Origin: Gemmatimonadota bacterium
GTDB lineage: Bacteria; Gemmatimonadota; Gemmatimonadetes; Longimicrobiales; Gaopeijiaceae
NCBI GenBank assembly: GCA_039589315.1
Contig: JBDHHQ010000033.1
Location: 1 to 45,469 of the forward strand
Reading direction: 5' to 3'
Length of the DNA: 45,469 nt
The position numbers are program-made. Of this stretch, positions 39,001-45,000 are shown piece after piece; within the stretch, counting starts at the first letter, position 1, and the number at the start of each line of letters is the position of its first letter.

Positions 39001-42000
39001 GCCGATGAGCTCATGGCCAGTTACGTGATGTTTGGAGAGGATCCGTTCATTCGGCCCACGCCGGAAGGTGTCCAACGGTTTTCCGCCAGGGACTACGCGA
39101 GGCAGCGCGCACCCGAAGTCATAGACGGGGCGGAAAAACGGTGAGTCCGCCGGCTTGGCTCAGTCGCTGTACCTGCCACCGGCGTACGGTAAGCGACTTT
39201 TTCTCGGAGCCGTGGTGCTCCTTTCTTCGCTTGCCCTTTTTGGCTGTGGTGGCGACTCGACGGTGGCGGACACGATGCGAAGTTTTCGCGTCGATTTTCG
39301 CACAACGGTGAAGTTCTAGGCCGATTCTCCGCACATGTGCGAAATCCCGCAACGGAAGTTCGCATATCCTACTGACACAGTCGCGGGCCATCTCCGCTGT
39401 GTCGGCTCGTCCCCGCTCGAGCTCTACAACCCCGGCAGGCATCGGACCACGAGCCGGCATTGATCGACCCGCCGGGAAGTCAGTCGGCGAAGCATGGCAG
39501 ATCCTTGGGAGCATCAGCGATCGCCGTCGCCCACTTCGACCTGCGAAGGATCGTCGATCGGGGTTCTGGGGGCGCTCACCAAGCCACGTTGCGGCCCAAA
39601 GTCTCGCGGGGTATGGTGATCCTATGATGTAGGCTGCGTGCATTACGCTGCGAAGTGAATCGCGAACGCCGCGGGTTGCCCTCCCCTCGCCGACGTATCG
39701 GATGAACAGGGGGGCACCCATGCGCTACAAGATTCGTGGGCACGTCGTCGACGTCGCTACCGGCAATCCCATCGGAGGGGTTCGGGTCGAGGCCTGGGAC
39801 AAGGACTTCTTCCTCGACGACCATCTCGCTACGGCTTCGACAATCAGCGACGGATCATTCACCGTCGAATTTGACGACTCGACGTTCCGGGAGTTCTTCG
39901 ACCGGTTCCCGGATGTCTTCTTCCGCGTCTACTGCTACAACCAGTTGCTGGCCTCCACCGAGGACTCGGTGCTCTGGAATATCCGCGAGCCAGCAGCCGC
40001 GGTGGAGATCGAGGCGATTCTCCCCGACCCTCCGGCAGCGGTGGAACGGCACGTATACCTGAAGATCGAGCGGATCGCAGACTACAGCACGGTCAAGCCG
40101 CAAGAGAAAGGTGGGAGCTACGGCCGCGACTGCATGCGGAACCACGGTCACATGGACGGCACCATCCCCCAAGCCGAGATCGACGCGCGTTCGCTCGACG
40201 CGGTCGTCTATCGGGAGTACCTGGACTCGGGGTATCTCGTACCCAAGCCCAACAAGCTGATTGCAGCGGACATCAACGAGCCCACGTACACGCACCGTGT
40301 GCCGGGAACTGTCATCTATACCCGCCCCGGGGAAATCCTGAAGGTTCACGTGTGGAACACCGACGACGTGCCGCACTCCTTCCACACGCACGGACTCCGA
40401 TACGGCATCGACTCCGATGGCGCTTGGCCGTTCGGCACCGTTTCGTCAGACGGCCTCCGCAGGTCGGACGCGATCTGTCCGGGCGACACGTGGACCTACA
40501 CATTCGAGGTTCCGAGCGACGCGATTGGAATCTGGCCCTTCCACGACCACACGCATCCCGGCGACAACAAGATCGAGCAGGGGTTGTTCGGCGGGTTCGT
40601 CGTCTTGGGTCCGTGCGATCGGCCACCGCGGCGCTTCCGCTTCCCGTGGGACGTCGTACTTCCGATCTACCTCGACGTCGCACGCCTCGAGGGTCGCGCC
40701 GTCCTGCCCGAACGGCAGCTCCGAGAGGACCCCGAGCTCGACGATGACGCGACCATCAGTCTCGAGCCTCACGTGCACCTCAAACATCTCAAGAAGGGTA
40801 CTCGGCAGGTCGTGGCACACCATCTCGACTTCCTGGAGGAGTTCGCGATGATGAGCCTCGCGCTCCCCCCCCTTTTCGTGAACACGGACCACGTGCCGGC
40901 CTTCTTCCACGTGATGTCGAATCCGGACGCCGATCCGGTGTTCGACACGGGCGACATCGAGGAGTTCGGGGGACAGGCGGAGGTAGTCTTCGACGCAGCC
41001 GGCGACTTCGAGTACTTCTGCACGCACCATCCCGACATGACCGGCGTAGTGCATGTCGTACCGGGTGGCCCAGCCCTCGTCACGGTCACCATCGTCCCGG
41101 GTCCGGCGTTCAGCCCGGCCGACGTGAACGTTGGTATCGCCGGCACCATCCGCTGGATCAACGACGACGGCACGCATCATACGGCCACGTCGAGGAGTGG
41201 GGCAGCGATCTCAACGCACTGCATAAACGGGCGCGGCTTCGTCGGCAACTCGCCGACGATCGTCGGGCGGAGCGGTCAGCGTATCCGCTGGTACGTGTTC
41301 AACCTCGATACCGGACTCAACTGGCACAACTTCCACCCGCACGCGATGCGATGGAAGTTCGGCGGCGAGGCGCTCGACATACGCAGCATGGGACCGGCCG
41401 AGTCCTTCGTGGTGGAGGCCGAGATTCCGCCGGTGCTGCTCCTGACGCCCGAGGAGGAGGCCTCCCAAGACCCCGACGATCGACCGCCTGGGGCGACGCT
41501 CCGTCACCTCAAGGGTGACTACGTCTTCCACTGCCACGTTCACCACCACATGATGAATGGGATGATCGGCCTGGTCCGCGCGAGGCAGTCGGTATGGCTG
41601 ACCGACGCGATGGCCGAGGCGATCGAAGAGCGGGTAGGCGCCCTACCTATCGACGACGGTACGAACGACTGCCCGGACGTCGAGCCCCGCCCGTGTCGCT
41701 CTCGGGCCGGAGGTCGATGGGAGAACGTGGTGGGCACGCCCGAGGTGCTGTTCATGCACTCGGTGCTCCTGCCGGGCAGCGATCGCGTGCTGTTCTGGGG
41801 TCGTACCCGGGCAGACCAGTCACGAGTCTGGGACTACTCGACGCCCGCGGGTGCGTACATGGCACCTGCGAACCAGCCGGCCGACCTGCCGGGGATGAAC
41901 GCGACTTCGTCGAACCTGTGGTCGGCGGAGCACACGATTCTCGACACGCCCAAGGGATTGGTTCTGGCGCACGGCGGGTTCACGCCCAGGCGGTCGTTCA

Positions 42001-45000
42001 CGTTCGACCCGGGACCCCTGATGTGGGCCCAGGTGGGTGACACGGCCGACGCGCGTTTCTATTCCACGACGCTCGGGCTCGGAAACGGTCGTGCGGCGAC
42101 GCTCTACGGCTCGGCCTCCAAGTCGATCGAGGTCTACGAGCACGGTGTCGGCTGGTCGGCGCCGATCACCATGCCGGCCTCGATGAATCATCACGTCTAC
42201 TACCCGTGGACCTACTTGCTACCCGACGGGCGTCTCTTCATCGCGGGGCCGCACGTGCCGACCCACCGCTTCGATCTGGCGGCACCGGGCGGGGCTGAGG
42301 CGTTTCCCACCGTGCACGGCGAGCGCAGCACGGGAGGGGAGAAGGGATCCTCGGTCATGTTGATCCTGCGCCCGCCCGATTACCGACCAATGGTAATGGT
42401 GATAGGTGGCAACCCGCCCGCCGCGCGAAAGACCGCCGAGATCATCGACCTCTCCGACCCCTCGCCGGCTTGGTCCCCGCTTCCCGATCTCAATGTGGAA
42501 CGCATGCAGCAGTTCACGGCTACACTCCTACCGGACGGGCGCGTATTCATCGCGGGCGGCATCACCGGCGGCGCGGACGGCGGTCCCTGCGAGATTTACG
42601 ATCCGGCGAATCCGGGCGGGGGGTGGGCGCTCGGCCCGTCCATGAAGCAAACGCGCACCTATCACTCCTCTTTCATTCTTCTGAGGGACGGAAGCGTGCT
42701 CGGCGGCGGCGCGCCCCCTGACGCGGATCCGCCGGCTGTGTATACACAGCACGAGCGGTTTTTTCCCGGATACTTCGACGCAGCACGACCCCAAATCGAC
42801 AATGCTCCGCCCGAGATCCATTACGGGGGTAGCTTCAACGTCGACACGGCCGATCCGTCGTCGATCCTCGAGGTCGTGCTCCTGCGGGCCGGAGCCGTGA
42901 CCCACGGCTTCAACATGTCGCAGCGAGGAATCGAGCTCGTGATCACTGGCACAGCGGGCGGCTCCGTGGTGGTCGACGAACCGCCGGTCGCCGACCTCGC
43001 ACCGCCCGGATGGTACCTGCTCTACATCCTGGATACGAACCGCGTGCCGTCGCCGGGGGTGTGGGTGCGGGTCACACCGTGAACCCGCGACCCGGTCAAC
43101 GGGGGTCCGCTTGAACGCCCATCGGTCAGTTGGTCGGCGGCAAGCGACGGGGACAGCGAGCAGGACAGGTGCGAAAACCCCGCGTACCGAGTCTCCGGGG
43201 CGGCTGAACGGAGCCGAGCGGGCCGCTCTGCTGCTGAGCGAGTGCGAGTCCGGCCGTTCCCACCGCGAGACCATCGATGATCGCCAGAGGCGACCGGCAA
43301 TGAAGCCGGGCGGCGCCCGTTACACCTGAATCAGCCCCCAGCCTGACCGGGCCGACCGAGCGTCACCGTCCAGCCATCACGGAAGCCACTGGTCCACGTC
43401 AGAGAAAGCGTCTCGCCCTCTAGTAGTTGGGGTTCAACGCTACGTAGGCCTCGTAGGTGAGCTGGTCCCCGTCCACGGAATAGCGGCCCGAGTTGCCAAC
43501 CATCGAACCGAGTGCCGCCAGCAGCTCGGCGTCGGTCGGCTCGTCGGACCATTGGGCGCGCGGCTCACCTCCCGTGACGTACAGCATGCTGTAGTTGGTC
43601 TCCGTGAAGATGAAGAGGCCTCGTCCTGGATCGGAATCGACCTCGCCCTCGGGGTTCGTCCAACTGACGACGATCCAGCGGCCGAGGAGGTCCGAATGGT
43701 CCTGGGCAGCGGTGGGAGTCCAGCCGATGGCGAAGACAGCGAACAGAGCGGCGAACGAGGTAGCGGCGAGTGCACTTCGCATCTGTGCCTCCGAGGCGAG
43801 GGAATCGTGGCGCGAGTGCTTCTATTCACTCAAACAGGCGTTCCTGCAAGTGTGGTGGGCCCTGTACCCCAGCTGCACCCGGGTGCTACGGCCGTAGAGC
43901 ACTGGAATTGGGATGGTAGCTTTCGCTCGCCGTGAGCGCCTGCGCTACCCCAGACTCGAACAGAATCGGCGCGGCGATTGCCGCCAGCAGGGCCGTTCGA
44001 ACGAGTGCGCGCATCTTCACCCTTCCCCCTGCAGGTGTCCGCCATTCAACGGACTTGCGATTCTGCGGCGCGACCTACTCGTCCACCGCGCAGCGACGTG
44101 AACACCGTAGGTGCGAACGGCGATGGACGCGACGATGGTGAAGACTCAGTTGTAGACTCCATCGCCCGGATCGTCCTGCAGCAGGTCAGTGAGGCCAGGT
44201 AGTACCGAACTCCGAGGCTCGTGGCGAACCGGTGGGGCGCCAGCTTGTACTCGGCGGTGAAGACGATGCCGGCATCGGTTGAGTTCAAACTCGTCTTCGA
44301 TATTCGTTTCCACGGTGATCGGAGTTTATCGGGTAACCTGATTCTCGGGAATGGTGGCCTGTCCTTCGTCGTTAGCGCCAGAACGAACCCCACCTGAGGT
44401 CCGGCGCCCAAATGGAGCCGATTCTGCGCGAGGCCGTTTGAGCATTACCGGGACCTCGAAGTCGCTCAGGTTCCGACTCCCGCTCGGGTCCGTGGCGATG
44501 GAGTCGAGGGGAGGTCGCAGGTCCCGTTGGGGCAGGTCGGCCGGTCGATGAGGGAAGACCGCACGATTCCTCGCTTGCGTGGGTGGAAGGGCTGCCGGTC
44601 GATGTCACGGATCGGCACACCGAGAACCCCACCTCGGAGGACTGCCATGTCAGTGCGACGATTCAGCGCGGATGCGATGGCGCTCTGGATTCCCTTGTTC
44701 TCGTTGGCGTGCGGGGCCACCATGATTCTCCCCGGCCAAGGCCACGCGCAATCCCTCGACGAGTGTCTCGTCGGCGTATGGCAGGAGATTCGGGGCGGCG
44801 CGGACGAGAAAGTCAGCGAGTTCATCGCGCCGGGCACCGAAGTGGTGTCGAACCTTAATTCGGGCGTGCTCATGGCGTTGCAGGACGACGGCACCTACGT
44901 GACCGCCCCCTACGCCGAGGCGATGATCTTCCTTCGCGAGCCCCGTGACGAATTCGGACTCGGCACGTTCGGCCCGGTGCTCGGCTCCAGCGATGTCCGC

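Follow-up and report, generated by a model that had tools for sequence, protein, structure and literature searches.

What can a copper site of the galactose-oxidase (AA5) type do when the cysteine of its cofactor is replaced? The relevant passages of one review present the Cys-Tyr crosslink as common to all copper radical oxidases (CROs) (PMC11611005) and, according to excerpts of a second source, the Cys228Gly substitution lowers galactose oxidase about 1000-fold (PMC11951088). The question is raised by a gene of a Gemmatimonadota bacterium (contig JBDHHQ010000033.1; the whole stretch of 45,469 nucleotides analysed here is called the window) whose product joins a multicopper oxidase (MCO) to an AA5 propeller carrying a serine, Ser735, in place of that cysteine. 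A literature search covering mostly open-access main texts returned no description of an MCO-AA5 fusion or of a Cys-less AA5 protein; such proteins may be listed in the supplements of PMC4417212 and PMC11267884.

Gene and modular architecture

The gene and its parts, all on the forward strand, are the following.

39720..43082, +, whole gene, one open frame of 1120 aa
39720..40034, +, N-terminal transthyretin-like beta domain, aa 1-105 (Pfam TTR-52, E 1e-4, below cut-off)
40041..40610, +, MCO domain 1, aa 108-297, with T2/T3 ligands H222/H224/H275/H277 (domain match, alignment, profile)
40611..40889, +, insertion specific to the Ser family, aa 298-390 (linker-length comparison, models)
40797-40865, +, lid helix, aa 360-382 (helix in models)
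40839-40841, +, Glu374 codon (E374 in 120/120)
40923..41201, +, permuted amicyanin-like type-1 cupredoxin, aa 402-494 (profile match)
41202..41600, +, rest of MCO domain 2, aa 495-627 (ligand residues in alignment)
41709..42779, +, AA5 seven-bladed propeller, aa 664-1020, with Y781, Y981 and H982 (alignments, profile, model)
41922-41924, +, Ser735 codon TCG (aligned on the cofactor Cys)
42780..43079, +, galactose-oxidase E-set domain, aa 1021-1120, supplying H1062 (Pfam GO-like_E_set, E 3.7e-24)

An in-frame ATG lies six codons upstream of position 39720; the start beginning MRY is the one found in most sampled close homologues. The protein matches Cu-oxidase_3/_2, Copper-bind and GO-like_E_set, and its Glyoxal_oxid_N match falls below the cut-off of that model. 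The transthyretin-like domain is present in 28 of 47 Ser loci, some of the loci being truncated, and is thus optional in the family. A crude hydropathy test saw no signal peptide in the 1120-aa protein and found hydrophobic N-termini in 0/120 members of the Ser family against 21/30 unfused AA5 controls. A comparison of positions 38400-39800 with Rfam returned no match, and a scan for sigma-70 promoters and terminators gave no signal above chance.

The homologue search returned 661 matches at E<=1e-20 among 8000 scored. Conservation was read from a 120-row Ser alignment made of the query and 119 of the 120 listed matches, the window's own 100% cluster having been dropped. The residues named in the first-pass annotation all occupy their positions in the fusion, and its conservation counts for the MCO, cupredoxin and AA5 ligands and for S735 were reproduced. 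The single-chain model (pTM 0.57) leaves domain packing uncertain. In the ESM Atlas, three automatically named clusters show the MCO-cupredoxin-AA5 architecture at 0.88-0.89, a lead only.

The multicopper oxidase and its permuted cupredoxin

The protein is a two-domain MCO with T1 in domain 2, to which a permuted cupredoxin and an AA5 module have been added. All eight T2/T3 histidines and the T1 His-Cys-His(-Met) set are found in the window's protein, domain 2 providing H536/C605/H610/M615 to T1 and H539/H541/H604/H606 to T2/T3. H222, H224, H275, H536, H539, H541, H604, C605, H606 and H610 are each conserved in 120/120 rows, H277 in 116/120 and M615 in 119/120. The domain 1 profile matches two-domain laccases, and in the MCO module model (pLDDT 72.9) the two cupredoxin domains match small-laccase folds with E about 1e-9. 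Small laccases with T1 in domain 2 are termed 'type B'. The protein shares two cupredoxin domains and complete T1 and trinuclear ligands with the two-domain small laccases (SLAC 3cg8, Ssl1), and Y228 stands after HGL, like Tyr108 of SLAC. It differs from them by the lid and permuted-cupredoxin insertions, the N-terminal extension and the C-terminal AA5 module; a Tat-like signal was found in 0/120 Ser proteins, in contrast with small laccases. By analogy with the two-domain MCO family, it would form a homotrimer with the trinuclear site between subunits.

The extra cupredoxin is an insertion within MCO domain 2, behind the first strand. It carries the His plus Cys-x2-His-x2-Met ligands of amicyanins and plastocyanins; their canonical order of halves is not found, since positions 11-45 of its profile match amicyanin 70-104 and positions 57-91 match amicyanin 22-56, a reversal indicating circular permutation. 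H487, aligned with the histidine of the amicyanin HNV motif, is the fourth ligand, and C434, H437, M440 and H487 are present (116/120) or absent together. The protein thus offers a natural case of domain insertion via circular permutation. Nmar_1354/MCO4 of Nitrosopumilus maritimus (9cck) likewise combines a two-domain MCO with an extra T1 cupredoxin, and its pendant domain matches the profile of the insert (E 1.4e-12); unlike in our protein, that domain is C-terminal and in normal order in the portions of the report available (PMC11761707), whereas here it is inserted, permuted and followed by the AA5 module.

The four homologues of 120 lacking the cupredoxin carry H277Y, and two further loci lacking it (L045/L046) carry H610D; all keep the lid, Ser735 and the AA5 ligands. 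The T1 axial ligand at first seemed tied to the AA5 residue (Leu in 120/120 Cys-keeping proteins, Met in 119/120 Ser proteins), a tie ruled out by Leu in seven Ser loci and Met in the Cys fusions L054 (first gene) and L099.

An AA5 site with serine at the cofactor position

Comparison of the model with AA5 structures gives Z 40-43 and rmsd 2.2-2.6 Å over 412-434 residues, region 661-1119 superposing with Z 43.3 and rmsd 2.4 Å over 427 residues. The propeller and E-set fold is that of GlxA (Streptomyces lividans, 4unm), galactose oxidase (1gof, 9g43) and CgrAlcOx (5c92). As in CROs, a seven-bladed propeller is followed by an Ig-like domain giving a His ligand, and the copper ligands comprise two Tyr and two His: the Tyr, Tyr-His and His set of AA5 radical oxidases is retained as Y781, Y981, H982 and H1062 in 120/120 rows. 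What is lacking is the cysteine of the Cys-Tyr crosslink, replaced by S735 in 120/120. The placement of Ser735 on the cofactor Cys, already proposed by the first-pass annotation, is borne out by profile alignment, in which 'DLWSAEH' aligns with 'DLFCTGH' of GlxA and 'DMFCPG' of galactose oxidase, and in the 120-row alignment no column from aa 660 to aa 890 is a conserved Cys. Judged by its sequence, the protein would therefore fall outside the CROs for want of the crosslink Cys; it scores 114.6 bits against the NCBIfam GlxA equivalog NF052501, whose cut-off is 800. The Ser735 codon is TCN in 44/44 loci (TCG 26, TCA 7, TCC 6, TCT 5), and such use of all four third bases speaks against a sequencing error and for a residue held while its codon drifts.

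The surroundings of the copper have changed as well. According to alignments with wild-type and W288A GlxA, F780 sits on Trp288, the stacking Trp of GlxA, whose equivalent is Phe or Tyr in the Ser family. M679, W734 and F780 are specific to this family: M679 occurs in 28/28 Ser rows against 0/43 Cys rows, and Trp or His at 734 in 28/28 against one Trp among the 43, position 734 being W or H in 15/15 Ser representatives. R869 was dropped as a Ser-specific marker because another alignment puts it on a shared Arg. Compared with GlxA and other AA5 oxidases, the protein therefore has Ser for Cys, Phe for Trp288, no signal peptide, a fused MCO and a predicted Glu lid supplied by the latter.

These substitutions invite a reading, unlikely in our view, in which the protein is still a radical enzyme. 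The MCO would briefly produce a Tyr781 radical without crosslink, or a protein-derived cofactor of another kind would form (a Trp/His734-Tyr link, a Met679-Tyr link or a tyrosine quinone); Glu374-Ser735 would act as a proton relay, and alcohols or aldehydes would undergo two-electron oxidation as in the Cys-keeping sister proteins described below. The invariance of Y781 and Y981 and the near confinement of M679 and W/H734 to Ser rows are consistent with it, as are statements, in the passages available, that one-electron oxidants and tandem peroxidases activate radical oxidases (PMC11611005), and that His-Tyr links, Met-Tyr-Trp links and TPQ are established cofactor types while Cys228Gly retains about a thousandth of activity (PMC11951088). 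On the other hand, the radical-stabilising Trp288 equivalent is lost too, the predicted lid would cover the substrate face, and the occurrence of either Trp or His at 734 is more in keeping with a hydrogen-bond donor than with a single fixed crosslink.

A predicted lid provided by the multicopper oxidase

The linker carrying the lid measures 70-172 aa in 120/120 Ser proteins against 8-9 aa in 120/120 Cys proteins. L372 and E374 occur in 22/22 diverse Ser sequences, and 18/18 Cys fusions have gaps there. The helix with its invariant Glu374 is thus found where Ser is and missing where Cys is, a covariation that counts as one evolutionary event and not as many independent ones.

Docking was modelled between aa 112-650 and aa 664-1120, two parts of one chain, in a complex without metal and without distances. 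The score is 0.67 against 0.00 for the best control, at least 71% of contacts are shared between runs and partner pLDDT is at least 90; the mark used is reached by 116/157 solved against 2/215 mismatched pairs, figures that apply only approximately to our own alignment. The predicted interface takes in 732, 734-735, 780 and 981 and contains the pairs 374-735 and 374-780: the lid helix is predicted to span the propeller mouth on the side of the AA5 copper, where Glu374 would contact Ser735 and Phe780. As Y781, H982 and H1062 are not among the predicted interface residues of this metal-free model, a role of Glu374 as ligand is something we infer.

Neither the extra cupredoxin nor the T1 ligands appear among the listed interface residues, which weakens a route from AA5 through the cupredoxin to the MCO. 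This relay loses further ground with the absence of the cupredoxin from 4/120 homologues and two loci in which Ser735 and the AA5 ligands persist. The decay of relay elements (H277Y, H610D, cupredoxin loss) in members keeping lid, Ser and AA5 ligands also counts against the mechanism favoured below. The annotation had passed over the Glu374 lid, the missing Trp288 equivalent, the newly acquired Met679 and Trp/His734, and the permutation with His487.

A capped propeller could instead be non-catalytic and bind metal or serve structure or regulation, for example as a copper reservoir, a sensor or an aid to assembly, beside an MCO responsible for all the chemistry. We regard this as rather improbable. 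A fifth protein ligand, as the complex model would allow, could saturate the site, and T1 relay elements decay while lid and site persist. Among 15 of the 120 short matches examined, most break off in the linker or run into a shifted frame, and one stand-alone candidate, P0417 (461 aa, source name Nitrosocosmicus), has an MCO module without cupredoxin, propeller or L-x-E motif; the module may therefore stand alone, in this one case that is possibly a truncation. Such a role sits poorly with the fixation of M679, R869, Y888 and R1013 in the second shell of 22/22 Ser-family sequences, and with a propeller mean identity of 72% in the Ser family against 60% in the Cys family, two sets of unequal depth. 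Within the Ser family, mean propeller identity (72%) comes close to that of the MCO (79%).

Alternatively, the lid could be a gate or pro-segment blocking the site until cleaved or displaced, the modules being then largely independent. The range of insertion lengths, the loose conservation outside the short L-x-E helix and the shielding of GlxA copper by another domain, mentioned in the passages seen of PMC11611005, agree with this idea, to which we give little credence: it leaves the loss of Cys and the fixation of Ser unexplained, and, once opened, a site lacking both Cys and Trp288 would be expected to perform poorly, judging from extracts of PMC11951088.

A sister family that keeps the cysteine

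The same MCO-cupredoxin-AA5 design occurs in a sister family that retains the cofactor Cys in 120/120 of the matches listed; the fusion is therefore independent of Cys loss. The interpretation offered by the first-pass annotation stands in part: it was right that no Cys-Tyr cofactor can form in Ser proteins and that their AA5 metal site is under selection, whereas the notion that the fusion offsets the lost Cys is weakened by these sister proteins.

Ser proteins form one clade. Among 56 AA5-like rows drawn from the best 150 matches, 38 have Cys, none with an MCO motif, and 15 have Ser, 10 with the motif and five beginning in the linker or propeller. A single origin of the fusions was neither demonstrated nor rejected by tests on 38 of 71 rows, with AU p values of 0.286 (all fused AA5 domains) and 0.173 (Ser plus main Cys family). 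The direction Cys to Ser is read from the Cys of all 38 unfused relatives rather than from a rooted tree. A fusion that kept the Cys is the most likely ancestor of the Ser family. Cultured carriers among record titles are Nitrosomonas, Variovorax and Lentzea for Ser, and Nitrosospira, Nocardia and Actinoplanes for Cys.

A conserved operon that would reveal the substrate was sought and rejected: no neighbour is found in more than 8 of some 100 loci, whose flanks are often short, a count leaving out generic ABC-type ATPases and genus-level synteny. Copper-ATPase-like genes lie near 5/47 Ser loci, and tyrosinases near 5/47 Ser and 3/53 Cys loci. LodA-like domains are fused to 15/120 Cys proteins, and in one of the 47 Ser loci (L042) lodA/lodB-like genes follow the Ser gene. 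Such LodA-like fusions and occasional lodA/lodB and tyrosinase neighbours recall the lodA-tyrosinase-MCO clusters in the sections consulted of PMC4417212; they differ in that those sections do not mention a galactose-oxidase domain and most loci here lack such neighbours.

Proposed mechanism and significance

We favour, at somewhat less than an even chance, a one-electron copper site that is closed, has no crosslink and is re-oxidised by the MCO, with substrate and electron path inferred. This reading draws on the covariation of lid and serine, the complex model, F780 on Trp288, W/H at 734, the MCO motif in Ser rows and not in the 38 Cys rows, and a propeller conserved almost as well as the MCO; the cost of Cys228Gly, as excerpted, also suggests that a radical site left open and lacking Cys would work poorly (PMC11951088). 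Ser735 and the N-H of Trp/His734 would hold the Glu374 carboxylate where substrate binds in radical oxidases; Glu374 would thereby ligate the AA5 copper or its water, and the site would be closed to sugars. A small reductant could then feed the AA5 copper one electron at a time as it cycles between Cu(II) and Cu(I); candidates are metal ions, for instance Cu(I), Fe(II) or Mn(II), and small N/O species. The fused MCO would take the electrons and reduce O2 to water rather than peroxide. A radical-free site is plausible.

In the Cys-keeping ancestor, the MCO may have served a normal radical oxidase within the same chain, either activating it by one-electron oxidation or acting as its electron sink. 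The Cys-keeping fusion would in this resemble the Colletotrichum and Magnaporthe AlcOx-peroxidase pairs, where a radical oxidase is tied to a one-electron oxidant; those pairs, as portrayed in parts of PMC11611005, differ by their separate genes, heme peroxidase and intact Cys-Tyr cofactor.

The crosslink is treated as universal in the AA5 fold, and its removal nearly kills galactose oxidase in the sources excerpted here, so that a conserved natural family without the crosslink Cys yet with the metal ligands shows other capacities of the scaffold. The Ser and Cys families form a ready-made comparison in which E374, S735, Y781 and H982 are directly testable. To remain active, radical oxidases depend on the addition of peroxidase or mediators, a dependence that the built-in MCO of the Cys family could remove. 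It is possible, if a little doubtful, that the Ser proteins are a natural, widespread AA5-fold family with a Tyr2-His2-Glu centre completed by an MCO helix, or with an undescribed protein-derived cofactor, performing a peroxide-free oxidation new to both parents, and that their Cys sisters are self-activating radical oxidases.

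Gene and domain architecture

The first-pass annotation described a multicopper oxidase (MCO) with an extra cupredoxin joined to a galactose-oxidase (AA5) propeller, in which the copper ligands of both enzymes are kept and the cysteine of the Cys-Tyr cofactor is replaced by serine. The gene lies at:

39720-43082, + strand, MCO-cupredoxin-AA5 fusion gene, open frame, 1120 aa

Pfam assigns two MCO domains, a stretch of copper-binding cupredoxin and a galactose-oxidase E-set domain, and gives a weak match to glyoxal oxidase. In PDB sequence searches, AA5 oxidases match aa 660-1119 and two-domain laccases aa 190-310, and no single chain spanning both the MCO and AA5 parts occurs among the matches listed. 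Every residue position cited in the annotation is correct, and its conservation counts were reproduced in 120 aligned sequences (the query and 119 of 120 listed matches). Ser735 occupies the alignment column of the cofactor cysteine in both GlxA and galactose oxidase, and the predicted model (pLDDT 82.2, pTM 0.57) again matches AA5 structures (E 1.8e-31; superposition Z 43.3, rmsd 2.4 Å over 427 residues). All four TCN codons are in use for Ser735 across 44 loci. Outside the standard MCO ligand set, D137, H144, E153, H397, C501 and C659 are almost invariant in this Ser family and in a sister family of fusions retaining the cysteine (Cys family); a further metal site or a disulfide is possible.

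Residues that accompany the serine

Met679 is present in 28/28 Ser proteins as opposed to 0/43 others. Ser proteins also carry Trp or His at position 734 and Phe or Tyr at position 780, the latter corresponding to GlxA Trp288 in alignments with the wild-type and W288A sequences; passages of PMC11611005 describe Trp288 as stacking on the ligand tyrosine. The linker between the MCO domains holds a 70-172-aa insertion in 120/120 Ser proteins, whereas it spans 8-9 aa in 120/120 Cys proteins. This insertion is variable apart from one helix, the lid (aa 360-382), bearing Glu374 in 120/120 Ser proteins. Glu374 recurs in 22/22 diverse Ser rows, with gaps there in 18/18 Cys rows; of 45 Ser rows taken from loci, 40 show Glu, four do not extend over the site and one is read in a shifted frame. 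The copper ligands and this covariation are established at the level of sequence. Since the Ser proteins form one clade, the association of lid and serine is one joint evolutionary event.

Predicted docking of the lid helix

When aa 112-650 and aa 664-1120 were folded as two chains, the complex scored 0.67, the best of three controls reaching 0.00. Among solved complexes, 116 of 157 reach the score mark, as do 2 of 215 mismatched pairs; these counts are only roughly valid for a model built on our own alignment. Both chains are pieces of one polypeptide, a case that such models tend to pass. Contact agreement between runs was at least 71% and partner pLDDT at least 90. The model supports binding of the MCO module to AA5 but does not show it. 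The predicted interface comprises helix 360-382 with residues 129-130 and 315-319 on the lid side, and 695-696, 732, 734-735, 754, 778, 780, 798-801, 820-827, 872 and 981 on the active-site face of the propeller. The lid is predicted to dock there with Glu374 contacting Ser735 and Phe780 (expected errors, not distances, of 2.9 and 2.4 Å). No cupredoxin or T1 residue figures in the interface list of this two-chain model, which does not speak against contact in a trimer.

In the reading that we tentatively prefer, Ser735 and Trp/His734 would anchor Glu374 where radical oxidases bind substrate, leaving a closed, crosslink-free copper site. This site would perform one-electron chemistry on a small reductant and be coupled to the fused MCO, which would convert O2 to water; its ligation, substrate and electron path are what we infer. 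The docked lid might instead act as a removable gate, which we regard as quite improbable.

The extra cupredoxin

A cupredoxin profile covering aa 402-494, built from 28 sequences, aligns to amicyanin in two pieces of swapped order (11-45 to 70-104; 57-91 to 22-56), so that the domain, which interrupts MCO domain 2 after its first strand, is circularly permuted. His487 is a further ligand, missing from the first-pass list; the four ligands co-occur or are jointly missing, and are present in 116/120 proteins. The cupredoxin is missing from two Ser sub-branches, one with H277Y (four homologues, P0118-P0121) and one with T1 H610D (loci L045 7992-10691 and L046 7860-10691). Both retain Glu374, Ser735 and the AA5 ligands. 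Such a plastic relay beside a preserved AA5 site counts against the closed-site reading. In L045/L046 the motif reads WSCAH, a Cys directly following the Ser. A transient radical or a new cofactor at the AA5 site is rather doubtful, and a non-catalytic metal module is unlikely.

Cysteine-keeping fusions and phylogeny

Locus L048 encodes an equal fusion design with the cysteine kept (DVFCAGH). A search with it gave 1092 matches at E<=1e-30 among 7999 scored, a figure that may count Ser proteins and unfused AA5s. All 120 Cys-family matches listed carry Phe-Cys, Arg-Trp-Tyr-Pro, complete MCO ligands and cupredoxin Cys/His/Met, and 15/120 end in a LodA/GoxA-like domain. A third, small fusion type (first gene of L054; L099) has Cys and a Met axial ligand.

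In AA5 trees built after removal of diagnostic columns, Ser proteins form a single group (28/28, support 100; 12/12 in a second tree). The MCO-module tree also groups them (16/16 rows), leaving out 12 Ser rows in which the whole module could not be delimited. The tree test neither rejects nor demonstrates a single origin of all fusions. From the best 150 representatives, 56 AA5-like rows were hand-picked and 94 multi-repeat kelch-type rows dropped. Of these 56, 38 have Cys, all without the MCO motif, 15 have Ser, one has Thr (likely a shifted frame) and two leave the site uncovered. The MCO motif occurs in 10 of the 15 Ser rows, the other five beginning in linker or propeller; none of the 56 is a Ser-type propeller that carries a leader of its own.

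Several further architectures were encountered. Triple MCO-cupredoxin-AA5(Cys)-LodA/GoxA fusions (main genes of L053, L054, L056, L076 and L081; P0129, P0143, P0233) are followed by a LodB-like flavoprotein gene. L054 and L099 combine a tyrosinase with two consecutive fusion genes, and Cys-family fusions P0228, L066, L070, L077, L082 and L086 bear an extra C-terminal NHL/lactonase-like propeller. P0417 (source name Nitrosocosmicus), a 461-aa MCO module that has neither cupredoxin nor AA5 part nor the glutamate motif of the lid, is a candidate stand-alone MCO form.

Genomic neighborhood

No conserved operon surrounds the fusion genes at 47 Ser and 53 Cys loci. LodA-like sequences occur at 1/47 Ser and 7/53 Cys loci, LodB-like flavoproteins at 1/47 and 5/53, tyrosinases at 5/47 and 3/53, and copper-ATPase-like genes at 5/47 and 2/53. 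In L042, lodA-like and lodB-like genes lie downstream of the Ser gene; passages of PMC4417212 describe gene clusters that combine lodA, tyrosinase and MCO. Large tyrosinase-VWA fusion genes adjoin Ser-family genes in L016 (4653-7493), L012 (4659-7421) and L021 (3503-6613). Two further genes, one for a second and distant MCO and one for a PpoB2 copper chaperone, lie 4-9 kb upstream of the fusion gene in the window. With other features of the window, they are:

32669-35575, - strand, second MCO, 968 aa, Tat-like RRDFL start, weak CueO/PhsA matches
31300-32079, + strand, PpoB2 copper chaperone, beside the second MCO
30552-31202, + strand, DUF1326 gene, also beside the second MCO
38545-38637, 39288-39380 and 32447-32534, same strand, ~93-nt intergenic repeat, three copies, 99% and 86% identical
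28219-30258, - strand, ORF fusing T6SS sheath VipA and VipB domains

The second MCO has a 55% identical paralogue on another contig of this genome; that contig also holds a partial repeat copy. Each repeat copy stands shortly downstream of a short or long + strand ORF; the region 32420-32550 folds into a long hairpin (z -2.8), the other copies less so, and Rfam gave no match in 38400-39800. The repeat is possibly a cassette or mobile-element end. Apart from the VipA-VipB ORF, the ORFs scanned include no secretion genes.

Distribution and cellular location

A search with the window protein returned 661 matches at E<=1e-20 among 8000 scored. The 51 homologous loci comprise 47 Ser-family, one Cys-family and three that share the N-terminal domain only; by record title they belong to Pseudomonadota, Acidobacteriota, Actinomycetota, Bacteroidota, Planctomycetota, Gemmatimonadota-type MAGs and two Nitrososphaerota. 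Its own genome holds a single copy of the gene, and the 40 relatives searched yielded no full-length copy, one having the N-terminal domain alone. Phyla are intermingled in the Ser-family tree. These observations would fit an accessory gene moved horizontally.

By a crude test, a hydrophobic N-terminus or Tat motif occurs in 0/120 Ser and 0/120 Cys proteins, and a hydrophobic N-terminus in 21/30 unfused AA5 controls; the fusion proteins would thus be cytoplasmic or leave by a non-classical route. The N-terminal transthyretin-like domain of the window protein (RVEAWDKD..DD.L) also opens 2,800-aa proteins (L049-L051, about 7980 onward; gene G037 of L106) and could be a common tag for targeting or ion binding. 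The L051 protein has Tc-toxin-A-type domains, its gene lying downstream of an SpvB/TcdB/RHS gene.

Relation to known enzymes

Small laccases with T1 in domain 2 are called 'type B'. The window protein has the ligands of small laccases and would work partly alike; Tyr228 comes after the HGL motif, as SLAC Tyr108 does. The window protein shares both fold and ligands with AA5 copper-radical oxidases but lacks the cysteine of the Cys-Tyr pair, and is therefore not classed among them. Among solved MCOs that carry an additional cupredoxin, Nmar_1354 comes closest; according to passages of PMC11761707, its domain is appended and unpermuted. Literature searches, with most subscription journals outside their coverage, returned no MCO-AA5 fusion. 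The fusion is real and combines known enzyme kinds with an altered AA5 active site. In the Cys family, the need of radical oxidases for one-electron oxidants, known from passages of PMC11611005, suggests, by analogy, that the fused MCO may serve as their built-in activator.
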